From: an uncultured delta proteobacterium
GTDB taxonomy: Bacteria; Desulfobacterota; Binatia; UBA9968
DNA: 64,000 nt
Assembly (NCBI GenBank): GCA_963847445.1
Contig: CAWJZV010000030.1
Coordinates: forward strand, 1-64,000
Reading direction: 5' to 3'
This document shows, piece by piece, positions 42,347 through 55,871 of the stretch (its first letter is position 1; each line of letters begins with the position of its first letter). The notes under the pieces were generated by a model. That model saw nothing but the letters and a program-made list of their open reading frames with translations, searched no databases and was not told the DNA's origin. Both the position numbers and the translations under genes were made by a program.

Positions 42347-42830
42347 ATGAAACAAACGCATCCGTGTCACTATCAATGGCCGGCTCTACGAAGAAGAGGT
42401 CGAGCCGCGCATTTTGCTCGCCCATTTTCTGCGCGAGACCATCGGACTGACCGGCACCCATGTCGGCTGCGTCATCGGCGAATGCGGCGCCTGCTCGGTG
42501 CTGCTCGACGGCAAAGTGGTCAAGTCTTGCCTGCACTTCGCGGTGCAGGCCGACGGGCGGGAGATCACGACCATCGAAGGCTTGGCCAAAGACGGCGAGC
42601 TCAATCCGGTGCAGGAAGCGTTCGTCAAGAATTACGCCTTTCAGTGCGGCTATTGCACGCCGGGCATGGTGATGACCAGCCACGCGCTGCTTGCAGAAAA
42701 ACCCCAATCCATCGGAAGAGGAGATCCGCAAAGCGCTGGCCGGCAATCTGTGCATGTGCACCGGCTATGTGCAGATCGTCGACGCGGTGAAAGACGCGGC
42801 AAAGGGAATGAAAAATGGCTAAGTTCGTAG
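42347..42830 (+). CDS. (2Fe-2S)-binding small subunit (frameshifted)
   Basis: [33 protein letters not shown]. Confidence 0.88.
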
Positions 42831-45247
42831 GCAACCGTTCACGCAGCAAAGAAGGGCCGCGCCATGTCACCGGCCGCGGTCTTTTCACCGATGATTTCAC
42901 AATTGCCCGGCATGCTCCAGGCGATGATTCTGCGCAGTCCGCACGCCCATGCGAAAATACTTTCCGTCGATGCCTCGGAAGCGCTCAACCAGCCCAACGT
43001 GTTTGCCGTGGTCACCCCCGACGATGTCAAAAAACTGACCAAGCCCTTCAAGCCCGGCCGCTATGCCGCCGGTTTGAAAAGACCAATTGACGAGTACGCC
43101 GGCGCCGTCGACAAGGTCCGCTATGTCGGCGAGCCCATCGGCGCGGTGGCGGCATGGGATCGCGGCACGGCGGAAGATGCTCTCGAATTGATCCAAGTCG
43201 ACTACGAGCCGCTGCGCCCCAACGTCGACGTGCACGAAGCGATCAAGCCGTCGTCGGCGGCTTTATTCGACGAGCTCGGCACCAATCTGGCCTGGACCGG
43301 TTCGCTGCAATACGGCGACATCGACGCTGCGTTCAAGTCCGCCGATCGCGTCGTCACCGAGAAATCTGAAAATTCATCGCTACAGCTCGACGCCGTTGGA
43401 ACCCTTCAACGTCATCGCCTCCTTTGACGCCGCGAGCAAACGCTTGACCGTGTGGGTGACGGCGCAGGTGCCGGAAGTGATTTACGACGGCCTGCGCGAA
43501 GCGCTTGGGGCTGCAAGACGTTCGCGTGATCATTCCCGATGTCGGCGGCGGCTTCGGCCAGAAGATTCATTTGATTCGCAAATACGTCGTGCTGGTGTCG
43601 CTCTTGGCGATGAAAACCGGCCGGCCGGTGAAATGGATCGAGGACCGCACCGAGCACATGATGGCCGGCGGCCATGCCTGCGCTCAGGAAGTCGAAGCCG
43701 AAGCGGCGGTGAAGAACGACGGCACGGTGCTCGGTCTCAAATTCAAAGAATATGATGACGTCGGCGGCTCGATCAGCACGCTGACGATTCACTTCACCAA
43801 CAAGCTCAACAATCTGTCGAACACCTACAAGACGCCGGCCATCTACATGGAAGGCAATGCGGTGGTGACCAACAAGTGCCCGGTCATTCCCAACCGCGGC
43901 ATCGGCAAGCCGGGCATGTGCTTCATCTGGGAACGGATGATGGACCGGGTGGCCCAGGCGCTGAACTTGAGCCCCATCGAAGTGCGCCGGAAAAATCTCA
44001 TCCAGGCCAACGAGATGCCCTACACGCACCATCAGCGGCAACGTCTACGACAGCGGCGATTACCCCGGCCTGCTGAAAACGCTTTTGGAGAAAATCGACT
44101 ACGACAAGCTGCGCGAAGAGCAGAAAACAAGCGCGCGAACAAGGCAAGCTGATCGGCATCGGCATCGTCATCGGCGTCGAGCCCGGCGGGCGCAATGCGG
44201 CGCGCGACATGGCGATCTTTCCCGAGATGAAAGAACCGCCCGGCTCCGGCGGCGTCAACGGCGCGAAAATTAAACTGGAGAAAAACGGCACGCTGTCGCT
44301 CCACTTGGGCTCGCCCAACTGCGGCCAGGCGCATGAGACGACGACGGCGCAGGTCGCCGCCGATATTCTCGGTTCGACGCCGGATAAGATTCAGCACCAG
44401 CATCCCCTTCGACAGCGATCTGTCGTCCTGGGGCGTGGCCGCGGCCAATAGCGGCAATAACTTTCACTTATACGATATCGGCGCGATCCACGGCGCAGCG
44501 ACCAAGCTGCGCGAGAAGATTCTCAAGCTCGCCGCTTTCAATCTCAAAGCCGAACCGTCCGAACTGATCATTGAAGACAGCGTCGTGAAAGTCCCCGGCG
44601 CGGCGGCGAAACAAATCACCTTCGCCGAGTTGGGCCGCATCGCCTACAACAACCAGCATCTGATCCCCGACGACATGGAACCGGGGCTAGAGGCGACCTT
44701 CTACTACATGTTTCCCCACGCCAAACCGAACATCGTGCCCGGCGCCGACCGCAAGGTGCGCGCGCAGTTTACCTTTTCCGCCGGCGCCCATGCGGCCATC
44801 GTCGAAGTCGACAAGAACACCGGCGCGGTGCATGTGCTGCGCTATTTGATCGTCGGCGACAACGGCACGGTGATCAATCCCGATGTCGTCAACGGCCAGG
44901 TTTACGGCTCGGCGGCCCACGGCATCGCCGTCGCCCTGGGCGAGGGTTTCATGTACAGCCCCGAGGGCCAGCCGCTGACGATCACCTATCTCGACTACGG
45001 CAAATGCTCGACGGCGGAGACGCCGCGCGTCGAAGTCATCCATCAGCCCTCGCCGTCGCCGTTCACCTCGCTGGGCCAGAAAGCCGCCGGCGAAGGCGCG
45101 GCGATCCCCTCGCCCGCCGCCATCGCCAGCGCCGTCGAGGATGCCTTGCAGCCCTACGGCGTGAAAGTTTGCGAGTTGCCGATCACACCCGAAGCGGTGT
45201 GGCGCTTGATCAATCACAATCCGGAAAAAGAGCGGAGGACTTTCTAG
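42815..45247 (+). CDS. CoxL-like molybdopterin hydroxylase large subunit (several frameshifts)
   Basis: [39 protein letters not shown]. Confidence 0.85.
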
Positions 45248-45249
45248 TC

Positions 45250-46110
45250 ATGATTCCCGGCTCTTTCGAATACTTTGCGCCCCGTTCTCTCGACCGATGC
45301 GGTAAAGTTCCTGGCGGATCATCGCGACGATGTAAAAATTCTCTCCGGCGGGCAGAGCTTGCTGCCGCTGATGAAGATGCGCTTGTCAAAGCCCGCCTAC
45401 ATCGTCGACATCGGCCGCATCCCCGGCTTGGATACGATCAGCGAAGACGGCAACAATCTCATCATCGGCGCGCTGGTCACCCACGAACAGATCGAATATT
45501 CCGACCTGCTCAAGGTTAAATGCCCGCTGCTGCCGCAAACCGCCACGACCATCGCCGACGTGCAGGTGCGCAACCGCGGCACCATCGGCGGCAGCATCGC
45601 CCACGCCGATCCGGCCGGCGATTGGCCGGCTGCGGTCATCGCCCTTGACGCCGAGATTCGCGTCTTCGGTCCCAGCGGCGAGCGTTGGGTCAAGTGTGAC
45701 GACTTCTTTCTCGGCTTGCTTGATGAGTGTGCTCGGAACCGGATGAGATCGTCACTGGAATCAAAGTGCCGGTGACCGGCAGCGACAAGACCGCCTATCA
45801 GAAAGCCGCGCCACGCTCTTCCGGCTTCGCCGTCACCGGCGTCGCCGTGCGTTTGGCGGTCGATGCCGCCGGCACATGCAGCCGCGCGGCCATCGGCATC
45901 ACCGGCGTCGGCGACAAGGCTTACCGCCCCGAGCGCACCGAGCAGATGTTAACCGGCAAGAAGCTCGACGCGAAATTGATCGAGGACGCGGCCGCCGAGT
46001 CGACGCGCAATATCGAAGTCATCGAAGACATCAACGGCTCGTCGGAATACCGCGCCCATCTGACTCATGTCTACGTCGTTCGCGCGATACAAGAAGCATT
46101 GAGCCGATAG
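45250..46110 (+). CDS. FAD-binding medium subunit (frameshifted)
   Basis: SGGQSLLP, QVRNRGTIGGSIAHADP, DINGSSEYR. Confidence 0.88.
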
Positions 46111-46163
46111 CGGCAACCTACGGCAATTGATGTGGAGGCGCAGCATGCTGCGCCCTGGCCTTT

Positions 46164-47048
46164 TCACATAACCTGGCGGCGCAGGTAGGCGCTGATGTAA
46201 TCGACAATCGTCACCAAAATGTAAATCGCTATGATTAAGGTCAGCAACTGCTGCTCAAAAAATAAGCTGATGGCGATATGGATGCGCTGGCCTAAACCGC
46301 CGGCGCCAACCAGCCCCAACACCGCGGCCATGCGAATGTTAACTTCCCAGCGATAAAGCGTGTAGGAAATAAACTGCGGCAGCACCTGCGGCACGATGCC
46401 GTAGAATAATATTTGCAACCGATTCGCCCCGGTGGCTTGGAGCGCTTCGATGGGCTGGGAATCGACGTTTTCCAGCACTTCACCGAAGAGTTTGCCAAGC
46501 ACGCCGCCGGTGTGAACGCCGAGGGCGAGGACCCCCGGAAACGGCCCGAGGCCGACGAGAAATACAAAGATCAACGCCCACACCATCTCCGGCACCGTGC
46601 GCAGTATATTGAGCAGGCTCTTCGCCGCGAGATAGGGCACGATGCGCGCCTTGCGCCGCCAACCCTGTTTGGGCTCCATCTCATAGAGCAAACCGGAAAA
46701 TATTAAGTTGCGCGAAGCGAAAAATACCACTGACAGCGCGATGGCCACGGCCAGGAGCGTTCCCATGAAGGAAATCGCGAAGGTCTCAATGCTCCCCTTC
46801 ATCGCCTCGTGCAAGACGTTGGGCGAAAGATCCGGTGGCAGCAATTTTTTTATGTAGATGAGGATCTGTCCGAAGCTGTCGGCGCTGAAGAGCTGCGCCA
46901 GATCGATGCCCGCGCCGCGATAGCTCCAGATAAGAAAGGCGCCAAAGGCCAAACCGATGGCAGCGTTCTTCCATGTCGAGGGCGTGGCAGCACGGGCGCG
47001 GGTCGGCGGAATCGTCTCACAAGCGTTCGGCAGCGGCGACGGGCTCAT
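46164..47048 (-). CDS. phnE: PhnE/PtxC family ABC permease
   Basis: RTVPEMVWA, YRWEVNIR, LGLVGAGGLG. Confidence 0.88.
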   Translation of the reverse strand: MSPSPLPNACETIPPTRARAATPSTWKNAAIGLAFGAFLIWSYRGAGIDLAQLFSADSFGQILIYIKKLLPPDLSPNVLHEAMKGSIETFAISFMGTLLAVAIALSVVFFASRNLIFSGLLYEMEPKQGWRRKARIVPYLAAKSLLNILRTVPEMVWALIFVFLVGLGPFPGVLALGVHTGGVLGKLFGEVLENVDSQPIEALQATGANRLQILFYGIVPQVLPQFISYTLYRWEVNIRMAAVLGLVGAGGLGQRIHIAISLFFEQQLLTLIIAIYILVTIVDYISAYLRRQVM

Positions 47049-47899
47049 AGCATGGCACGCACTTTCGCGCTCAAGTAATCCACTGCGGCAACCATCAGAA
47101 ACAACATGATCAAGATCGTCAGCACTTCATTGAAATTGAACATGCGCATGGAGATTTCGATCTGCTGGCCCAAGCCGCCGGCGCCGACCAAGCCTAAAAT
47201 TGCCGAGGCGCGCACAGCGCACTCCCAGCGATACAGCGTATAGGAAACGAAATTGGGCAGCGCCTGGGGAAACCAGCCATAGAAAAACACCTGCAGCTTA
47301 TTTGCCCCGGTGGCCTGCAACGCTTCCAGAGGCCGGGAATTCACCGACTCGAAGATCTCTGAATAGACTTTGCCGAGCATGCCGCCGTAGGCGACCCCGA
47401 TGGCGAGCACGCCGGGAAACGGCCCCAAGCCGACGGCGCGAACGAACATGAAGGCCCAGACGAATTCCGGTATTGAGCGGAATAGACTCAGCAAGCCGCG
47501 CGCGACCAGATAGATGCCCTGACGTAGACCCCGGCGTAGGGGCGCGCCTTGGAGCTCGGCATCGTTGAGGATGCCGCCGACGACCAGCGTATGGGTGCCC
47601 AACAGTCCGAGTGGAAAACCGATCAGAACCGCGATCGCCGTGCCCCAGATAGAGATTTGAATAGTCTCTAAAGCCGGACGCAGCATCAAGGATAGAAAAT
47701 TCCACGAGACCTCCGGCGGAAACATGCCGGTAAGAAATTTCCCCAACGACGCGCGCCCGCGGTTGGAAAAAAACAGCTCCGGCTCGATCCCCGCCCTTCT
47801 CCAACTGTCGACGAATACTATTACGAAGAGAGCCGCGAAAAGATAGGGAAAGTAGGCTTTAGCTGAGCGAAGGGTAAGCGATGGGCTCGATGGTTTCAC
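47045..47899 (-). CDS. phnE: PhnE/PtxC family ABC permease
   Basis: RSIPEFVWA, YRWECAVRAS, LGLVGAGGLG. Confidence 0.88.
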   Translation of the reverse strand: MKPSSPSLTLRSAKAYFPYLFAALFVIVFVDSWRRAGIEPELFFSNRGRASLGKFLTGMFPPEVSWNFLSLMLRPALETIQISIWGTAIAVLIGFPLGLLGTHTLVVGGILNDAELQGAPLRRGLRQGIYLVARGLLSLFRSIPEFVWAFMFVRAVGLGPFPGVLAIGVAYGGMLGKVYSEIFESVNSRPLEALQATGANKLQVFFYGWFPQALPNFVSYTLYRWECAVRASAILGLVGAGGLGQQIEISMRMFNFNEVLTILIMLFLMVAAVDYLSAKVRAML

Positions 47900-48683
47900 G
47901 CGCGGTCTCGGTCACGGCAGGGTCGCGAAAATTGCCGGAGTACAAATCCTCTAACATATCCTCGCCGATCTTGTCAGGGGACAGATCGAAAGTTACCCGG
48001 CCCTGCTTGATGCCAACGACGCGAGGGAAATAGGCGAGCGCGAGGTCGACACTGTGCAGGCTGACCAGCAAAGTCTTGCGCGTGTTTTGGCTGATATCGA
48101 CCAACAGCCGAACAATCGACGAAGCCAGGGTGGGGTCGACGGATGAAACCGGCTCATCGGCAAGAATAACTTCAGGGTCCTGCACCAAGACACGGGCGAT
48201 CGCGACTCGCTGCTGTTGGCCGCCGGAGAGCTCATCGGTACGCTCAAAAATCTTCTCGGGGATTTCCACTTGGCTGAGCGCGCTGTGGACAAGTTCGACA
48301 TCGGCTGGCTTGCACAAAGACAAGAGCGACCGCAGCGTCGGCCAGCGGCCCAATTGGCCGGCTAGGACGTTATGAATCACGCGCAGGCGCGGCACTAGAT
48401 TATGCTGTTGGTAAACGCTGCCGATGCGGCGCCGCACATGGCGTAAACGCTGGCCATGCAATAAGTCAATATCTTCGCCGTCAATATAAAGTTTTCCCGA
48501 AGTCGGCCGGAGCGTGCAGTTGAGCAGACGAAACAGCGTGGTCTTGCCGGCGCCGCTGGGACCGATCAGGGCGACTTTCTCGCCCTGATCGATCTTTAGA
48601 TCGATGCCGTCGAGCGCCACCTGAAGGCGGCCAAACTCCTTGCGTACGGATTCGAGTTGATATTGCCGGGCCGGGGTGTTCAC
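47859..48683 (-). CDS. phnC: PhnC-like ABC ATP-binding protein
   Basis: GPSGAGKTT, LSGGQQQRVAIAR, LADEPVSSVDP. Confidence 0.9.
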   Translation of the reverse strand: MNTPARQYQLESVRKEFGRLQVALDGIDLKIDQGEKVALIGPSGAGKTTLFRLLNCTLRPTSGKLYIDGEDIDLLHGQRLRHVRRRIGSVYQQHNLVPRLRVIHNVLAGQLGRWPTLRSLLSLCKPADVELVHSALSQVEIPEKIFERTDELSGGQQQRVAIARVLVQDPEVILADEPVSSVDPTLASSIVRLLVDISQNTRKTLLVSLHSVDLALAYFPRVVGIKQGRVTFDLSPDKIGEDMLEDLYSGNFRDPAVTETARETIEPIAYPSLS

Positions 48684-48688
48684 GCGAT

Positions 48689-49546
48689 TTACTTGAACAG
48701 GCCAGCCGCCACCGCCGCCTCTTCGATGCCCTTCCAGTCCGCATCCTTGGCGACGATGTAGCCCTTGGTGCGGTGCAGGTCGAGAAGCTTTTTGTCGTCG
48801 GGTTTGTTGTAGTCGAGTTTGAGAAACGCTTTGGTGATTTTTTCGACCGTAGCCTTGTCGACACCGGCGCGCACGGTCCAGACGTAATCGACATAAGGCG
48901 GCGTGGTCCAGAAAATATTCACCTTGCTGGTATCGACCTTTTTGGTTTCGACGAGCTTATCCCAAACCAAGAAATTCAACGCGCCGGCATCCACCTGGCC
49001 GGATTCGACCCAAGCGGCAGTCGCATCGTGGGCACCGCTAAAGCTGAACTTGGAAAAATCTTTTTCCGGGTTGACGCCGCCTTTGATCAAGAAGTAGCGC
49101 GGCATCAGATGCCCGGAAGTGGAACTGACGCTGCCGAATGCAAAGGTTTTGCCCTTTAAATCTTTCAGACCTTTGATGCCCGTGTCCTTTCGGGTGATAA
49201 AGTGGCTCTTAAACTCGGCGTCCTCTTTGCGCATGATGACACGGTGCGCGCCTTTGGCCTGCTTGGCAGCTTGCACAGACGTCAAGCCGCCGTACCAAAC
49301 CATTTCCAGGCGATTGGCGGCGAGACCTTCAACCGTCGCGGCGTAATCGACCACGGGAGTGAATTTGACTGGAATGCCGATCTCCTTGGTCAAATAATCG
49401 GCAAACGGCGCATAGATGCGCAGCATCTCCTGCGGGTTTTCATCGGGAATCGCCGATATTCGTAATTCCTTCAACCCCTGGGCTTGCGTGCTAGCCCAAC
49501 CCAAAGAGATTGCCAGAGCCGCCGCAAAAAATACTACTCGCTTCAT
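48689..49546 (-). CDS. PhnD-fold binding protein, putative selenate ABC transporter subfamily
   Basis: SAIPDE, WYGGLTSVQA, GSVSSTSGHLMPR, FSGAHDAT, TTPPYVDYVWTVR recalled as typical of the putative selenate subfamily. Confidence 0.75.
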   Translation of the reverse strand: MKRVVFFAAALAISLGWASTQAQGLKELRISAIPDENPQEMLRIYAPFADYLTKEIGIPVKFTPVVDYAATVEGLAANRLEMVWYGGLTSVQAAKQAKGAHRVIMRKEDAEFKSHFITRKDTGIKGLKDLKGKTFAFGSVSSTSGHLMPRYFLIKGGVNPEKDFSKFSFSGAHDATAAWVESGQVDAGALNFLVWDKLVETKKVDTSKVNIFWTTPPYVDYVWTVRAGVDKATVEKITKAFLKLDYNKPDDKKLLDLHRTKGYIVAKDADWKGIEEAAVAAGLFK

Positions 49547-49594
49547 GATCTCCCCCTTATAAATATCGCTCACAATCGTGACCCATGTTAGATA

Positions 49595-49631
49595 ACAGAG
49601 ACAGCCTATAAGTCAAATCGATTTTATCTAT
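49595..49631. promoter_or_regulatory. Paired LysR-type boxes upstream of the transporter
   Basis: ACAG-N7-CTAT (49595..49609) and ATCG-N7-CTAT (49617..49631), 22 bp apart. Confidence 0.55.
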
Positions 49632-49713
49632 CGGTGCCGAGCGAACAAAGGCAGCGGCTACGCTCCCGTGCAATAGCCGGTTGCCCAGGACGTGCAAGCC
49701 GTCCGGCGGCGCG

Positions 49714-50185
49714 CTAACTTTGCGCTTTCAGAAAATCCATCACGGCTTCAGGATGCTCCTCGGCCTTTTTAACAGTCGTCCAGTGCTTGATCACGTCGCC
49801 TTTGGGATCGATCACGACCGTGGAACGGATCGTGCCCTGCACCTCTTTGCCGTACATCATCTTCTTGCCGAAGGCGCCGTATTTTTTCATCACCTCGGTC
49901 TTGGGATCTGAAAGCAATATGAAGGGCAATTTATAACTTCTCGACGAACTTGTTGTGGGACTCGATGCTATCCTTACTGACACCGAGAACGACCGTTCCG
50001 GATTTCTTCAATGCAGCATTCAAATCGCGAAATCCGCAGGCTTCTTTGGTGCAACCGGGCGTGTTGTCCTTTGGATAAAAATAAATCACCACGGTTTTGC
50101 CTTTGTAGTCGTCCAGTGAATGCGTCTTGCCATCGTTGCCTTCCAGGCTAAATGCCGGCGCTTTCTTGCCTTCTAAACTTGCCAT
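49714..50185 (-). CDS. bcp: Peroxiredoxin BCP/PrxQ, Cys form (1-nt frameshift near 49934)
   Basis: [18 protein letters not shown]; Cys45 TGC at 50051..50053. Confidence 0.9.
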
Positions 50186-50252
50186 CGGTTTATTCCTCCT
50201 AGACTTGTCGAACGGATATTCAAAACGCTGATGAATTATTTAGCACCGCCGG

Positions 50253-51053
50253 TCAAACTAACGAAACCCGCTCGGCCTTGTGCGCCATCGCGCGTATCGG
50301 ATCGTAGTCGTGATCATCGGCGGCGGTAAAACGCAACCATCGGCCATCCGCGAGGACCTTGCGGCCAGCGGGATCGAGATGCATCTCGACGAGCAACTGG
50401 CGCAGCGCCTGCCGTTGGGATGCCGCAACCTGGCGCGAGATCACCCAGGGCGGAATCGGACTCGGCCCGATGGTGTCGATCACGCGAATTTCATCCGCTA
50501 GATCATTTCGCTGGCCGCCGAGCCACTCCAACACGGTGCTGTCGATGGCCGCGCCGTCGACGGCTCCCGATAAGATCATTTGCAACGACTTGGTATGGGC
50601 GCCGGCTTCCACCGCCGCGGCAAAAAAATTATCGATTTCACCGAGATCGAAGAGATGCGCGCGCACGACGTTGAAACCGGAATGGGAACGCGGCTCGTTG
50701 TAAGCCCAGGTCGCGCCACGGAGGTCACGGAAAGATCGGCAAGCGCTGTCCCGCCGCACCACCACATCGGAGAAATACACCGGTCTGGATCCGTAGCGCT
50801 CTCCCACCGGTATCGGCACGGCGAGCAACTCCATACTGCTCTCGGCAAGGTCGGCCTTGTGGACGTAGGGTAATCCACAGAGCCAAAGCACTTGAATCTC
50901 GCCGCGATCGAAGAGCGCTTCACGCTCCTGCCAGGGCATGCCGGTCACATACTCCGTCGGGACATTGAGCTTCCCTTGCAGATACCCGGCGATAGCTCGA
51001 CAGAAATCTTCGGTGTTCTCCGCCATGCAGGAAGCGAGCTTTAAAGGATTCAT
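50253..51053 (-). CDS. PhnD/SsuA/transferrin-family binding protein without signal peptide
   Basis: WLCGLPY, YFSDVVV, YNEPRSHSG, GAHTKS, GPSPIPP. Confidence 0.8.
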   Translation of the reverse strand: MNPLKLASCMAENTEDFCRAIAGYLQGKLNVPTEYVTGMPWQEREALFDRGEIQVLWLCGLPYVHKADLAESSMELLAVPIPVGERYGSRPVYFSDVVVRRDSACRSFRDLRGATWAYNEPRSHSGFNVVRAHLFDLGEIDNFFAAAVEAGAHTKSLQMILSGAVDGAAIDSTVLEWLGGQRNDLADEIRVIDTIGPSPIPPWVISRQVAASQRQALRQLLVEMHLDPAGRKVLADGRWLRFTAADDHDYDPIRAMAHKAERVSLV

Positions 51054-51066
51054 CGAGGCGGAACTG

Positions 51067-51348
51067 CTACTCGCTGACCGTCACGCCACGCCAAAAGGCA
51101 ACGTAGTTTTTAATCGAGCCCGCCGCCTCTTTGGGTTCTGGATAAAACCAAGCGGCATCTTGGTTGACCTGGTCGCCCACCTTGACGTGATAGTAACTGG
51201 CCAGCCCTTTCCAGGGACAAGTGCTGTGGGTGTCGCTCGGCGCGAAGCAATCTTTCTTGATCGATTCCGGCGGAAAGTAATGGTTGCCTTCGACGACGAT
51301 GGTTTCGTTTGATTCGGCGACAACCGTATTCTTCCAAACTGCTTTCAT
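51067..51348 (-). CDS. DUF427 domain protein
   Basis: VVEGNHYFPP, STCPWKGLASYY, AAWFYPEPK. Confidence 0.9.
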   Translation of the reverse strand: MKAVWKNTVVAESNETIVVEGNHYFPPESIKKDCFAPSDTHSTCPWKGLASYYHVKVGDQVNQDAAWFYPEPKEAAGSIKNYVAFWRGVTVSE

Positions 51349-51374
51349 GATCAATCCTTTCGATTTACTACGGG

Positions 51375-52736
51375 TCAGTCAGTGACGCAGCGAAACTTGG
51401 CGAACACATAGGGATAGTGCGCTTGATACCAATTGCGAAAACTTGGCCGCAGCAGTGCCGCATCGGTGGCCCAGGACGCGCCTTTGACGACAAAATGTTT
51501 GCCGTCGAAAAAATCCTTGGAATAGTCGGGATAGGTCGTCATGTAGGGCGTGAACCCCGGCAGCGGTGCAAACGGTGTATCGGTCAGCTCCCAACCATTG
51601 CCGACCAGCTCTTGAACTCCCCAGCGGCTAGCACCCGCGGGATGTGAACCGACCGGCTGCGGCGACCATGCGCCAAAGTTGAAGTTGCCATGGCGGGCCG
51701 CAGGCTCGGCATCGCCCCAAGGATACGCCGACTCCCGTTCGTCTGGACCGTAGTAGGCGGCGCGCTGATATTCGGCCTCGGTCGGCAAGCGCTTGCCGCG
51801 CCACGCGGCATAGGCACGCGCTTCAGCCAGACTTACGTAGACCGGCCAACTGGCAACTTGCTCCAGCGGAAATTGGTCGAACATCGCACGGTATGACCAG
51901 GTGTCATCCTGTTTGAACCAACCGGTCGGATGTTGTTTCTTCTCAAGTTCTTTCCAGTGCCAATCATCCTCGCGCCAGTAGCGGCGCGCCGCGTAGCCAC
52001 CGGAAAGAACAAACTCGAGATATTCGCCATTGGTAACCGGCAAAGAGTCCATCGCGAAGCCTGCGACATCAACCGTGATCTCGGAGAACTCATTGTCCCA
52101 GCCAAAAGTGATATCTTCTAATCGCGCCCCCAACCGGGCTCTGCCTGGGGGAATGCGAATACTCTCCGCTCTTGCGGCGCGCCCGAATGCGTAACGGGCA
52201 AGACTCGCGCGGCCGAACTTTATCGCCGGGCGCCATCTGCTGCATCATGTAGAGCAAGGTCTCTTGATGCATGTATTCATGCTCCAAGATCAGCTCAAAG
52301 ACGCGCCCGCCTTGGGCCAACAGATCGGTAGAACGGCAATAGCCGAGCGCATCAGTCGACTCTAAGAGAGAGCGCCGGACTTTGTCACGATACTCGAGGG
52401 TCTCACCAAGGCTGGGCCATTGATCCGGTACTTCCGGGTGCCAGTGGCATTCGCCGGTGTCGACGTCGGGATCGATGCCGCGGCAGAACAGATCGTCAAA
52501 ATAAGCATTGAACAGACGGCCAGTGCAGAATGCCGCCGCAAACCTGGTTCCAGGAAAACGCCGGCAAATGACCGATATAAAAAATAAACGGATGACGCCA
52601 AACGATCGGCTTGGTCAAACGTTTGGCCGGTGCCAACGATGGCGAAAATCTTGTCTGAACGCGCCCAGGCATCGACCAACCTGTCACGCAACTGCTCGGC
52701 AGCGCTCGGACCGCGGCTCTTTAACGGCAGTGCCAT
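51375..52736 (-). CDS. DinB + FGE-sulfatase non-heme iron sulfoxide synthase (EgtB/Egt1/OvoA/SenA superfamily), frameshifted
   Basis: RHPFIFYIGHLPAF, FCRGIDPDVDTGECHWHPEVPDQWP, EHEYMHQETLLYM iron-ligand motif, KRLPTEAEY, RPSFRNWYQ. Confidence 0.85.
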
Positions 52737-52753
52737 AACTCGGTACCTCCATT

Positions 52754-52785
52754 AATTAGCTATATACTAAATAGGAATTAGCTAT
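52754..52785. promoter_or_regulatory. LysR-type box upstream of sulfoxide synthase
   Basis: ATAG-N7-CTAT at 52771..52785; AATTAGCTAT repeated 22 bp apart. Confidence 0.6.
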
Positions 52786-52829
52786 GTAAGACCGCGGAGG
52801 TAAAATTTCGATGAAAAAAATGCCGCAGA

Positions 52830-53742
52830 TTATCGGTGTTTGAGAAAATCGCGGAAAGCTTGGGCGATGGGATGGAACGGCCGGCGGCTATGAAAGACTT
52901 GGTAGAAGTTGCGTTCGAGTTTCAGGCCACGGATCGGCACTTCGACGATGCTGCCTTGATCGAGCTCATGGCGAATCGAGATGCGCGATAAAATCGAAAA
53001 GCCGTAACCGGCCATCAGGGCTCCCTTGACGGCTTCCGTGCTGCCAAGCTCCATGGTGATGTTCAAAAGGTCGTGGGCGGGCGGTTTGCGTTTGACCGAG
53101 CAATTGCCGGATGGAATCCAACGTCCCCGAGCCATGTTCGCGTGAAATGAATCGTTCACTGCGCAGGTCCGCGACTTCGATCGCTTTACAGCGGCTCCAT
53201 GGATGGCCTTTGGGCACGGCGACGACCATTTCGTCATCCCAAATCTTTTCGAAACTAAGTCTAGGATCGTCGCCTTTGAAGCCGACGAAGCCGATCTCGA
53301 CCTTGCCATCCAAGAGATCGGCGACCACACCGGCGGAATCGCCAATGCGCAGGATCGGTTTTACCTGGGGAAACTTTTTGATGAACTCGCCGAGCTTTTG
53401 CGGCAGGAGATATTCGCCGGGAATGCTGCTGCCGCCGACCCAAAGCTCGCCGCTGAGAGTGCCGTGAAATTGCTCCACCGCGGCGACGGTTTCGCGTTTG
53501 AAGGCGAGTAGATTCTTCGCCCGTTCGGCGAGCATGAGGCCCAACGGCGTCAGACTGATCTTGCCCGGCATGCGGTAGAGCAGTTTGCCACCCACCGCTT
53601 CTTCGAGCTCTTGGACATGAGCGCTGATGGTGGGCTGGCGCAGCGAGAGCAGCTCGGCAGCCTGAGAAAAACTCTTATGTTCAGCGACCCAGTAGAAAAT
53701 TTCTAATTTGTGGAGATCGAGGTCGGCTTTGATTTTCGCCAT
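52830..53742 (-). CDS. LysR family regulator (CysL/CmpR-like, resembles selenium-metabolism-associated LysR), frameshift near 53090
   Basis: HTH SFSQAAELLSLRQPTISAHVQELE; GSSIPGEYLLP, REHGSGT, ELGSTEAVK. Confidence 0.85.
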
Positions 53743-53762
53743 GGAACAGGAAAAGCTTTGTC

Positions 53763-53808
53763 GCTGAGGGAGCGCGCCATTACAAACAATCGGCCGCGCT
53801 CCCTCAGC
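53763..53808. other. 14-bp perfect hairpin between Sec-peroxiredoxin and LysR
   Basis: GCTGAGGGAGCGCG...CGCGCTCCCTCAGC. Confidence 0.7.
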
Positions 53809-53822
53809 TAGGGTTTGACTAC

Positions 53823-54290
53823 TTACTTACCGAGGAATTCCAACACTTCCGCCGGATGGGCGCCGGCGTCAGTGACAGGAATCCAATGCTTCTTAATCGT
53901 GCCATCGGGGCCGATCAATGCGGTCGAGCGGATCGTCCCTTCCGAGACTTCGCCCGCGGCATTTTTGCGCGGTCCCCAGGCGCCATAGGCTTTCATGGTT
54001 TCTTTCTGCTGGTCGGCTAAGAGCACGAACGGCAGGTTGAACTTGTTGATGAACTGATTGTGAGAGTCGATGCCATCCGGGCTGACACCTACAACCACGG
54101 TATTGGCTTTCGTCACGGTATCGATAGCGTCGCGGAACCCGCACGCTTCTTTGGTTCAGCCAGGTGTGTCGTCTTTCGGATAAAACCACAGAATGACGTT
54201 TTTGCCGGCGTATTCCGCCAGCGAATGTTGCTTGCCGTCGCTCCCCGCCAAAGTGAACGCCGGCGCTTTTTGCCCTTCAAGTCCTGCCAT
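53823..54290 (-). CDS. Selenocysteine-containing peroxiredoxin BCP/PrxQ (155 aa, Sec45)
   Basis: Single frame from ATG 54290 with GGAGG RBS: WFYPKDDTPG-TGA(54158..54156)-TKEACGF; TGA aligns with Cys45 of the paralog. Confidence 0.88.
54127..54146 (-). promoter_or_regulatory. Bacterial SECIS-like stem-loop
   Basis: GCGUGCGG-GUU-CCGC(G)ACGC starting 10 nt after UGA, G in apical loop. Confidence 0.75.
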
Positions 54291-54308
54291 GAAGCACCTC
54301 CGTATTAA

Positions 54309-54325
54309 GATAGTGTTTGTCTATC
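54309..54325. promoter_or_regulatory. LysR-type palindromic box upstream of Sec-peroxiredoxin
   Basis: GATAG-TGTTTGT-CTATC (T-N11-A core). Confidence 0.65.
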
Positions 54326-54408
54326 ACACCGATAATCTATCTATCAATGATCGAGGACCGGCCATTGGCATTGTCAACGGCAATGCTTGACGGTATATTT
54401 TCGCAACT

Positions 54409-55578
54409 ATGGCAAAGCGATCGACCCTATCGGATTTGCACGAACGCCAAGGGGCGACTTTTATCGAACGGGACGGCTGGCTATTGCCCGACCATTTCGG
54501 CGATCCGGCGAGCGAGTACAATTCGGTTCGTGAATCCGCCGGCCTGTTCGACCTCGCCAATCGCGCCATGCTGCAATTCACCGGCGAGGACCGGCTATCC
54601 TATCTGCAAGGCATGCTATCCAATGATCTGCGCCCGCTTAAAATGTTCGATGGCCAGCAGGCGACGATTCTGACGCAGCAGGGCAAGGTGGTCGCCGATG
54701 TTCGCGTACTCTGCTCCTTGAACTCTTTTTACCTGGATTTCTGGGAGCCGCTCAAGGAAAAGATTCTCACCCATCTCAATCGCTATCTGGTCGCCGATGA
54801 CGTAGAGATCCATGATCCCAATGAGCAATGGAAAATGCTTTCGCTGCAAGGGCCGCGGGCGCAAGTGATGCTTGATCAAGTGTTTGCCAATGCCGAGCTG
54901 CCGGCGCACGCGAATCACCATGGCATGGTGCAATTCGACGGCACTCCGGTCTGCGTCGTGCGCGCCGATCGCACGGGCCATGACGGCTTCGATCTGATCG
55001 TGCAAACTTCTCAGCTCCTAACCTTTGCCCAACGCCTGACCGAGCTCGGCGCGGCCTGGGTCGGCGCACAGGCGCAGAATATCTTGCGCGTCGAAGCCGG
55101 TATGCCTCGTTACGGCGTCGATTTCTCCGAAGATAATCTGCTTCTTGAAGTTGCCCTGGATGACGCCGTGAGTTTCACCAAGGGCTGTTATTTGGGCCAG
55201 GAAGTCGTCGAGCGCATCCGCTCGCGCGGCCATGTCAACAAGAAGCTATGCGGGCTCTTGCTCGATGGCGACACCCCGGCAAGCCCTGGCGACAGGATCA
55301 GCGCCAGCGGCAAAGAGGTTGGCCAGATTACCAGCTCCGTCGCCTCCCTCGCCCTCCAGCGGCCTATTGCCTTGGGCTATGTCAACAAGGACTGCTGGAC
55401 GCCGGGCACCAAGTTGGCGGTAAGCCATGGCGGCAGTGAATTCGCGCGCGACGATAACCTGCAAGACCGATCGTCCCCGCTGCACACCCTGGCCCTTGAA
55501 TCCATGTCTCAACTCCGTATATTAGGCGGAAATTTGCTCCAGCTCAGAAAGGAACTTCGGCAATGGCCAATTTCGTAA
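54409..55578 (+). CDS. GcvT/YgfZ-like folate-binding aminomethyltransferase family protein (3' end probably frameshifted)
   Basis: SFTKGCYLGQEVVERI motif, RADRTG, LRVEAG. Confidence 0.88.
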   Translation: MAKRSTLSDLHERQGATFIERDGWLLPDHFGDPASEYNSVRESAGLFDLANRAMLQFTGEDRLSYLQGMLSNDLRPLKMFDGQQATILTQQGKVVADVRVLCSLNSFYLDFWEPLKEKILTHLNRYLVADDVEIHDPNEQWKMLSLQGPRAQVMLDQVFANAELPAHANHHGMVQFDGTPVCVVRADRTGHDGFDLIVQTSQLLTFAQRLTELGAAWVGAQAQNILRVEAGMPRYGVDFSEDNLLLEVALDDAVSFTKGCYLGQEVVERIRSRGHVNKKLCGLLLDGDTPASPGDRISASGKEVGQITSSVASLALQRPIALGYVNKDCWTPGTKLAVSHGGSEFARDDNLQDRSSPLHTLALESMSQLRILGGNLLQLRKELRQWPIS

Positions 55579-55871
55579 AAGTCTGCAAAACCGATGAGGT
55601 CAAAGGCGGTTGCGGCAAAAGCTTAGAGATCGACGGCAAAGCCATCGGCGTGTTCAATGTCGACGGCAAGTTCTACGCGATCAACGATGTCTGCGGCCAC
55701 CGCGGCGGCCCGCTCGCCGAAGGCGAGATGGATGGCACCACCGTGATCTGTCCCTGGCATGGCTGGCGCTACAACGTCACCACCGGCGAAAACGAATTGT
55801 TGCCGGCTCTGCCCACGGAAAAGTATGAAGTCCAGGTCGAAGGCGACGACGTACTGGTCGATTTAGGTTAG
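55563..55871 (+). CDS. Rieske-type ferredoxin
   Basis: CGHRGGPL and CPWHGW motifs. Confidence 0.92.
   Translation: MANFVKVCKTDEVKGGCGKSLEIDGKAIGVFNVDGKFYAINDVCGHRGGPLAEGEMDGTTVICPWHGWRYNVTTGENELLPALPTEKYEVQVEGDDVLVDLG

Follow-up and report, generated by a model that had tools for sequence, protein, structure and literature searches.

A conserved gene cluster of a Binatia bacterium places a probable ergothioneine-type sulfoxide synthase and two peroxiredoxins beside a selenium-family LysR regulator

We analyzed a stretch of 64,000 nucleotides (nt) from an uncultured bacterium of the Binatia, referred to here as the window, in which ten minus-strand genes encode two PrxQ-type peroxiredoxins, a LysR regulator, a non-heme-iron sulfoxide synthase, a small DUF427 protein, a binding protein without a leader peptide and an ATP-binding cassette (ABC) importer. 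The cluster is real and conserved; it is probably a single regulon, and this regulon probably responds to selenium. With moderate confidence we read it as a peroxidase and ergothioneine-type module controlled by selenium status, that is, a conserved redox-defense cluster under its own regulator of the LysR_Se family. The window covers positions 1–64000 of contig C30 in a metagenome-assembled genome (MAG, here G000) of 7.19 Mb and 48 contigs with 91.8% completeness and 6.9% contamination. The ten co-oriented genes described in an earlier reading of the letters alone (the sequence-only reading) were confirmed at 46164–54290 and named by Pfam and NCBIfam models. That reading had proposed a selenium-responsive module of oxyanion import, a pair of selenocysteine (Sec) and cysteine peroxiredoxins and a histidine-chalcogen synthase. 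The link to selenium was borne out by the models NF040786 and TIGR04553, by synteny and by sel genes, the synthase of a new selenium compound was not. Two orphan families aside, every part is of a known kind; the value lies in the combination and in these two orphans.

The survey of homologous neighborhoods that had been suggested for this cluster revealed strong synteny. The order Prx-LysR-synthase-DUF427-(binding protein)-Prx was present in all 14 loci fetched from the same genus, a subset of the 20 ortholog-bearing genomes for which longer contigs were chosen and the unpublished genome G005 was omitted. The cluster is also kept in MAGs of Binatia type (L056–L060 and L096), there as LysR-Prx-synthase-binding protein-Prx. 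Synthase orthologs of at least 62% identity occur in 20 of 30 same-genus genomes when G005 is counted and in 19 of 29 without it. The leaderless binding protein is found in eight of the 14 same-genus loci.

The regulator carries much of the link to selenium. LysR and PhnD had been proposed for comparison with selenium-associated families, and both comparisons were positive: the intact LysR ortholog of a relative (L041) passed NF040786, the model for a selenium metabolism-associated LysR, with 267.8 bits against a cut-off of 250 and passed no other curated model, and PhnD of the window passed TIGR04553 (Table 1). The frame-broken LysR of the window reaches 191.3 bits to NF040786 over its first 258 residues. 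Counting G005, 19 of 31 genus genomes contain a match above the cut-off, 18 of them at the coordinates of the cluster; in the nineteenth, G017, the match is on another contig, where its position relative to the cluster could not be checked. Genomes without the cluster show generic LysR matches only, of about 150 bits, yet tRNA-Sec (G004, G007) and egtD are present. Since NF040786 matches track the cluster while cluster-less genomes keep tRNA-Sec and egtD, the regulator appears to be local to the cluster. LysR_Se and its archaeal homolog HrsM have been described in PMC9312934 and PMC5322559; the latter reports that Cys isoforms are repressed by HrsM when selenium is present and, in a survey, that LysR_Se is confined to SelD-containing organisms. 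PMC5322559 also describes a conserved proline in the substrate-binding domain as a mark of the family. Our cluster resembles these systems in that the ortholog passes the family model, a selenoprotein gene adjoins the regulator and the organism possesses selD. However, HrsM governs Sec/Cys hydrogenase isoforms in methanogens, whereas the neighbors here are peroxiredoxins, a thiohistidine-type synthase and an importer, and unlike in the HrsM setting the regulator is found only alongside the cluster.

A candidate LysR-type site, ATAG-N7-CTAT, occurs in exact form before the Sec-containing peroxiredoxin (54310–54324) and before the synthase (52771–52785). These two copies in 64 kb compare with 0.22 expected, and 4 of 100 shuffles reach two. 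The sequence-only reading had placed this motif before three units, which held for two of them; the third, the PhnD unit, has only two one-mismatch boxes at 49595 and 49617, while a longer form is shared by the synthase and PhnD. This composite operator, ATAG-N7-C[GT]AT-N7-ATAG, has two matches in the 7.19 Mb of the genome, one before the synthase and one before PhnD. Upstream of the synthase it is kept in five of five relatives searched, and a reversed-pattern control gave two matches in those five genomes. An additional operator match in G006 (C167:14823) has no cluster gene nearby and was treated as chance. Of 14 loci in relatives, 12 carry the exact box ahead of the synthase; a one-mismatch box precedes the Sec-containing peroxiredoxin in L040–L042, and neither the sel nor the sen/egtD locus yielded an exact copy.

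The gene at the head of the cluster, Sec-PrxQ, contains a TGA at 54156–54158 at the peroxidatic position (DTPGUTKEACGF), with the resolving Cys five residues further. The TGA is present in 14 of 14 sequences, namely the window and 13 relatives; the fourteenth relative, L044, ends before the site and is not in the count. Across these sequences the 33 nt past the TGA show five variable columns and an invariant 20-nt core, too little variation to count covariation, in comparison to 27 variable columns in the next 33 nt, 11 in the preceding 33 nt and 15 in the same stretch of the Cys-type paralog. The hairpin predicted within this stretch has a folding energy of –18.4 kcal/mol and a z-score of –1.5, unexceptional by energy alone, and an Rfam scan of 45500–55000 returned a chance-level ribozyme (E 0.71) as its sole match and no family of Sec insertion sequence (SECIS) elements. 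Of the UGA/SECIS peroxiredoxin proposed for this position, the UGA and a constrained stretch behind it were thus upheld, and the hairpin stays a candidate. The protein shares the AhpC/TSA fold, the T-P-G-U peroxidatic U and the resolving Cys with the COG1225 Bcp selenocysteine peroxiredoxins and differs in nothing essential; Sec-Prx (COG1225, TxxU) is listed among selenoproteins in PMC9312934. The second peroxiredoxin, PrxQ2, has a peroxidatic Cys in the window; in the ten relatives' loci readable at this site the residue is Sec in three (L041, L043, L053) and Cys in seven. In a MAG of Binatia type, another gene of the AhpC/TSA family close to the cluster (L057:4225–4692) also carries a TGA in frame, within FTGGU.

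The genes for Sec incorporation had been expected elsewhere in the genome, and all except an intact selC, to which we return below, were found: selA, selB in pieces and a TGA-containing selD lie together on contig C14. Since selD (C14:194887–195726), directly after selA and selB, has one in-frame TGA, it is probably a selenoprotein itself. tRNA-Sec is present in six of eight same-genus genomes searched, G005 counted.

We then determined the type of the synthase. The orthologs consist of 452 amino acids with DinB_2 and FGE-sulfatase domains only, and intact synthases of 450–458 amino acids are present in nine relatives. No methyltransferase domain is present, which rules out the Egt1-like enzyme named in the sequence-only reading; the protein belongs to the OvoA/EgtB-IV branch and is neither SenA- nor OvsA-like. 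Full-length orthologs passed none of the curated models: they scored 259 against a cut-off of 400 for the OvoA N-terminal model TIGR04344, 221–224 against 360 for EgtB (TIGR03440) and 220–221 against 420 for SenA (NF041186). When a profile of the clade was compared to solved structures, EgtB-IV scored highest (8vih 249 bits, 8vig 232), followed by MthEgtB (221), OvoA (191), OvsA (8ux5, 147), SenA (119) and EgtB-II (105). For MthEgtB we took H134, Q137, H138, Y377, Y380, N414, W415, D416 and R420 as the presumed anchor residues; their numbering matches the chain index once shifted by one.

The signature residues of the synthase are R47, Y53, H56 / D88 / H152, H156 / Y401, Y404 / N434, W435, Y436, with positions 1–4 and 7 mapped by alignment to 8vih and 8khq and not taken from the published figure. 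We compared them to the composite motifs that the ovoselenol preprint (PMC11030361) sets out in its methods. They agree with the EgtB-IV motif RxYH--DxHxHYxNWFx except for Tyr in place of Phe at position 16 (Y436), so that the full motif is absent. OvoA is distinguished by a C-terminal methyltransferase, which is lacking here, and by (Y/F)-A-F at positions 14–16, where the synthase has N-W-Y. The OvsA motif xNEH--HRHxHYMQAYR differs from the Y, Y, N, W, Y and Asp88 of the synthase, and SenA from its Asp88, which stands instead of His at the Arg87 position, and from the lack of an adjacent senB.

The C-terminal part of the motif separates the wider family. We aligned the reference with 79 of 80 loci (L073, whose best tblastn piece is shorter than 380 residues, was omitted); 65 of the 80 sequences read NWF, 13 including the reference read NWY and two end before the site. 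At the NWF loci egtD lies within 8 kb in 64 of 65 cases, eight of the 64 also with DUF427; one locus (L126) shows an operon of synthase, EgtD and DUF427. The 12 NWY loci comprise six in the context of LysR, Prx and binding protein, four myxobacterial ones beside egtD, one with the binding protein only and one with none of these. In a quick IQ-TREE phylogeny of 81 rows with SenA as outgroup on a long branch (all rows passed a length filter of more than 400 residues), the sequences from selenium contexts group in a single clade with a support of 98 in the Shimodaira-Hasegawa-like approximate likelihood-ratio test (SH-aLRT), and their sister group (96) is an egtD-linked clade of Methylomirabilota and Verrucomicrobiota. 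Based on signature, structure scores, egtD-linked relatives and tree, the synthase is most likely a derivative of egtD-linked, ergothioneine-type EgtB-IV-like enzymes. EgtB-IV (8vih, 8vig), an OvoA-like enzyme that forms ergothioneine from hercynine and cysteine, is the best solved relative, sharing the two domains, the lack of a methyltransferase and a wider clade linked to egtD. It differs in having Phe at position 16, and the cluster contains no egtD and a synthase scoring 224 against 360 with the EgtB model TIGR03440. Unlike EgtB-IV, the cluster synthase stands under a selenium-family LysR and between two peroxiredoxins.

The absence of senB, selD and egtD, on which the sequence-only reading had based its suggestion of a new architecture, is true of the cluster and not of the organism: selD lies on C14, and egtD together with a cut senA on C23. 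In a genome of the same genus, G014, a paralog passes the SenA model (489 against 420) and adjoins SenB (TIGR04348, 339 against 300), and EgtD (304 against 290.9) is encoded about 6 kb from senA with a ProV/permease-OpuAC transporter alongside. In G000 egtD is located at C23:10516–11406 (298.4 against 290.9) with the same neighbors as in G014, and two SenA-like pieces run off the start of contig C23; SenB was not found in the G000 assembly, its expected position being beyond the contig end. With G005 included, egtD was found in 30 of the 31 genomes of the genus. The sen-type locus (G000 C23:1–15300, L135; G014 C29:292000–306000, L149) further encodes a GlcNAcase-like protein, an alpha/beta hydrolase, an FGE-only protein, LysE and a desaturase, apart from senA, egtD and, in G014, senB. 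It also contains ProV and a permease-OpuAC fusion, which we take to resemble the ergothioneine transporter EgtUV. The cluster of the window is similar to sen clusters in pairing a sulfoxide/selenoxide-synthase homolog and a transporter of TIGR04553 type within an organism that uses selenium and whose genus also has a true sen locus; a putative selenate transporter is found near many sen clusters according to the selenoneine preprint. It differs in lacking senB and selD, in its score of 221 against 420 with the SenA model and in having Asp for His at the donor-binding position.

These data bear on the suggestion that the synthase forms a C-Se bond without a selenosugar, from selenocysteine or from selenium held on the Cys of the leaderless protein, which would make the cluster a self-contained pathway of selenium uptake and selenometabolite synthesis. 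Every neighbor has a connection to selenium, the leaderless protein retains the Cys through which AioX bonds a pyramidal metalloid oxyanion, and in the loci searched this protein occurs only beside this synthase clade (six of six selenium-context loci and L075). Fission-yeast Egt1 fed with selenium produces selenoneine. Moreover, position 16 is Tyr, where SenA has Phe or Tyr according to the selenoneine preprint. Nevertheless, we consider the suggestion quite unlikely, as position 7 is Asp as in OvoA/EgtB-IV and not the His of SenA and OvsA, the SenA model is missed by a wide score (221 against 420), the genus already holds senA-senB...egtD, and four myxobacterial NWY homologs stand beside egtD with no selenium genes near. 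A maker of a new selenium compound working without senB, selD and egtD, as had been proposed, is therefore not supported: the signature for cysteine and hercynine is complete bar one position, and the nearest relatives beyond the clade are egtD-linked. A related proposal, which appears distinctly unlikely to us, is a chalcogen switch in which LysR_Se steers the hercynine pool either to ergothioneine via the synthase or to selenoneine via senA and senB, the leaderless protein acting as a cytoplasmic selenite binder on its Cys. In its boldest version the leaderless protein would pass selenium to the synthase, which would amount to a third, sugar-independent route to a C-Se bond.

The leaderless protein has 2841 metagenomic relatives at E ≤1e-10, the best 120 of which are 257–301 amino acids long and carry generic names. 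Among solved structures AioX and ArrX come closest to it (75–79 bits), well before PhnD. The pocket of AioX is built from Tyr88, Cys106, Tyr131, Ser161, Ser163, His192 and Asp210, and arsenite bonds Cys106 (PMC5908839). The equivalents in the leaderless protein are W41, C59, Y93, S123, S125, H153 and D171, so that six of seven residues are kept and Trp stands for Tyr88; all seven are invariant across 26 orthologs. None of the 26 has a leader peptide, the protein beginning at the first strand of the fold in homologs of 257–270 amino acids. A lipoprotein reading based on L-A-S-C near the start was rejected: eight residues precede the Cys, this Cys is not conserved and many homologs begin at Met10. 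AioX-family proteins are described as periplasmic partners of sensor kinases (PMC5908839). The cluster protein thus resembles AioX, ArxX and ArrX in its nearest structures and in the kept equivalents of Cys106, Tyr131, Ser161, Ser163, His192 and Asp210, and differs in lacking a leader peptide and genes for a partner kinase or regulator: no sensor kinase or response regulator was found beside it. The kept pocket, Cys included, together with two peroxiredoxins and an antioxidant synthase in one operon would also be consistent with a metalloid-stress module, in which the leaderless protein acts as an intracellular sensor or sink for arsenite or selenite while peroxiredoxins and thiohistidine counter the oxidative damage caused by the oxyanion. 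We judge this highly unlikely, since the neighborhood of the cluster lacks ars, aio and arr genes as well as a histidine kinase and a response regulator, proteins of the AioX family work in the periplasm as partners of sensor kinases whereas this one has no leader peptide, and Tyr88, which is mobile on arsenite binding in AioX, is replaced by Trp.

The second orphan, DUF427, contains an invariant H43-x2-C46-x-W-K-G motif. Its only solved relative, PDB 3djm, has no function assigned, and the family is described as having a beta-tent fold common to MsrB (PMC4287342). A complex prediction of synthase and DUF427 scored 0.00 in both runs, and no conclusion was drawn from it.

In the preferred reading, a selenium-controlled redox-defense module, the synthase would couple cysteine to hercynine, giving an ergothioneine-type 2-thiohistidine, with hercynine supplied by egtD at the separate selenoneine locus. 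Both PrxQ proteins would remove peroxides and the ABC system would import a selenium oxyanion, while the leaderless AioX-like protein would use its conserved cysteine to hold a metalloid oxyanion in the cytoplasm, selenite being the most plausible candidate, and DUF427 may act on the product of the synthase. Operators of the ATAG-N7-CTAT type stand before three units: Sec-Prx; synthase, DUF427, binding protein and PrxQ2; and the ABC importer. Function and direction of control are inferred; by analogy with HrsM, LysR_Se would read the selenium status and set the levels of peroxidase, sulfur antioxidant and selenium import. As an outcome, hercynine would be shared between ergothioneine and selenoneine.

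Several observations weigh against this reading. The assignment of the synthase uses signature positions placed by alignment, as stated above, and its acceptor might be histidine instead of hercynine: AshA, an OvoA-like enzyme, takes unmethylated histidine, and its Tyr528 bonds the free amino group (PMC13674229). We take Y436 at position 16 of the synthase to match this Tyr528, so that its acceptor may be histidine. The Sec or Cys state of the head Prx and PrxQ2 varies by lineage (U,C in the window, U,U in L041, C,U in L057), and these flips are hard to reconcile with an operon that simply serves as a Cys back-up. No intact tRNA-Sec gene was found in this assembly by ARAGORN, Rfam or mapping of the flanks from G003. 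The 5' 23 nt of the G003 tRNA-Sec are at C4:239464–239486 and the 3' 24 nt at C12:77579–77602, each beside the matching flank; with its two ends on different contigs, selC is either split by insertion or rearrangement, or mis-assembled. An ARAGORN call of a tRNA-SeC at C2:139122–139203 was discarded for its poor acceptor stem and lack of an Rfam match even at E 1. Finally, the nearest solved structures of the importer PhnD are phosphonate and phosphite binders (205 and 189 bits), the 'selenate' in the name of TIGR04553 is itself a prediction, and the ABC operon adjoins the cluster in only four of 14 same-genus loci, with about 80% identity in L050 and L051 and about 45% in L044 and L053. Most relatives (e.g. 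L041:8530–9624) have a Tat-signal transglutaminase-like gene instead of the ABC importer after PrxQ2; two one-mismatch boxes at a distance of 22 nt lie upstream of this gene, and it may belong to the same regulon.

The structural relatives of the importer and its adjacency in just these four loci would also fit a general oxidative-stress regulon, in which LysR senses peroxide or thiols like OxyR, the UGA of the peroxiredoxin is a coincidence and the ABC system imports phosphite or phosphonate and lies downstream in some genomes by chance. In the same direction point the cluster-less genomes G004 and G007, which keep tRNA-Sec and where egtD persists, LysR thus not being a general selenium regulator there, and the presence of OxyR among the weaker LysR family matches. 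We regard this explanation as unlikely. The LysR ortholog passes the curated selenium-associated model and no other, the reported restriction of LysR_Se to SelD-containing organisms (PMC5322559) speaks for a tie to selenium, and the importer possesses the only other composite operator of the genome and a binding protein that passes TIGR04553.

Three genes of the cluster are frame-broken in the window: LysR near 53094, the synthase near 52621, 52513 and 52199, and PrxQ2 near 49935. If genuine, these frameshifts would make the three genes pseudogenes of a decaying cluster, and the concentration of all five breaks in three genes, with the seven other cluster genes intact, would be in line with this. 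However, comparison with two relatives shows each of the five to be an insertion of one base. The insertions at 53094, 52621, 52513 and 52199 are absent from contigs of the public runs X1 and/or X2, which as near relatives of a different strain diverge from the window by about 3–6%, and the site near 49935 is uncovered. Next to the cluster, CoxL- and CoxM-like molybdenum hydroxylase genes (42496–46110, plus strand) contain at least seven and at least two frame changes, respectively, which indicates a general indel error rate of the assembly; selB is in pieces and the MAG consists of 48 contigs. The five insertions are likely assembly errors, and decay of the cluster is very improbable.

The coordinates of the cluster are given in Table 1. 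A perfect inverted repeat of 13 bp between Sec-Prx and LysR is possibly a terminator or attenuator that separates the two transcripts or damps read-through; a consensus terminator scan did not call it. A promoter scan gave four promoter-like sites against 4.3 expected and nothing usable. A look for transcripts turned up no RNA run containing positions 46164–54400. Upstream of Sec-Prx, positions 54409–55871 of the plus strand encode a YgfZ/GcvT-like folate-binding protein, divergent from the cluster, and a Rieske-type ferredoxin; this pair keeps its place beside the cluster in G014 (L041) and L057.

Table 1. Genes and sequence elements of the cluster, in positions of the window
Feature	Position	Strand	Basis or remark
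Sec-PrxQ, PrxQ/BCP-type peroxiredoxin	53823–54290	-	PF00578; PrxQ models (TGA read as C)
LysR_Se regulator (NF040786)	52830–53742	-	one extra base near 53094 breaks frame
Non-heme-iron sulfoxide synthase, DinB_2 + FGE-sulfatase, OvoA/EgtB-IV branch	51375–52736	-	extra bases near 52621, 52513, 52199
DUF427 (PF04248) small protein	51067–51354	-	113.6 bits against gathering threshold 22.1
Leaderless PhnD-fold protein, AioX/ArrX oxyanion-sensor subfamily	50253–51053	-	structure-profile matches, pocket residues
PrxQ2, peroxidatic Cys	49714–50185	-	one extra base near 49935 breaks frame
PhnD, periplasmic binding protein of TIGR04553 type	48689–49573	-	334.9 bits against 250
PhnC-type ABC ATPase	47859–48683	-	TIGR02315 259.3 bits, slightly below cut-off of 266.1
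Two PhnE-type permeases	47045–47899, 46164–47048	-	TIGR01097 249.9 and 255.8 bits against 216.7
SECIS-like hairpin	54123–54149	-	begins 6 nt past UGA; predicted fold
ATAG-N7-CTAT box (LysR-type T-N11-A)	54310–54324		between Sec-Prx and divergent ygfZ-like gene
Composite operator ATAG-N7-CTAT-N7-ATAG	52760–52785	-	24–49 nt upstream of synthase start codon
Composite operator ATAG-N7-CGAT-N7-ATAG	49606–49631	-	upstream of PhnD
Perfect 13-bp inverted repeat	53764–53807	-	between Sec-Prx stop and LysR start; read from sequence

The sequence-only reading had not recognized the architecture as described. Literature searches, which did not extend to supplements, found no description of the arrangement of LysR_Se, Prx, synthase and AioX-like protein, but the co-occurrence of such synthases with DUF427 (5.7%), PhnE (3.1%) and ABC_peri_selen (3.1%) among their neighbors is already tabulated in Table 1 of PMC13674229, where it is not taken further. 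Ergothioneine, selenoneine and ovoselenol are known as biosynthetic cassettes, and their regulation and their links to peroxidases in bacteria have barely been explored. Here, in a lineage that bears sen genes as well, a thiohistidine-type synthase stands under a putative selenium-sensing regulator family and has a Sec/Cys peroxiredoxin pair and a predicted importer of selenium as neighbors. The cluster therefore offers a system in which to ask how hercynine is split between sulfur and selenium antioxidants and what a bacterial LysR_Se controls. It also provides a first functional context for two orphans, DUF427 and the leaderless AioX-like proteins, a large family in metagenomes whose Cys pocket is conserved.

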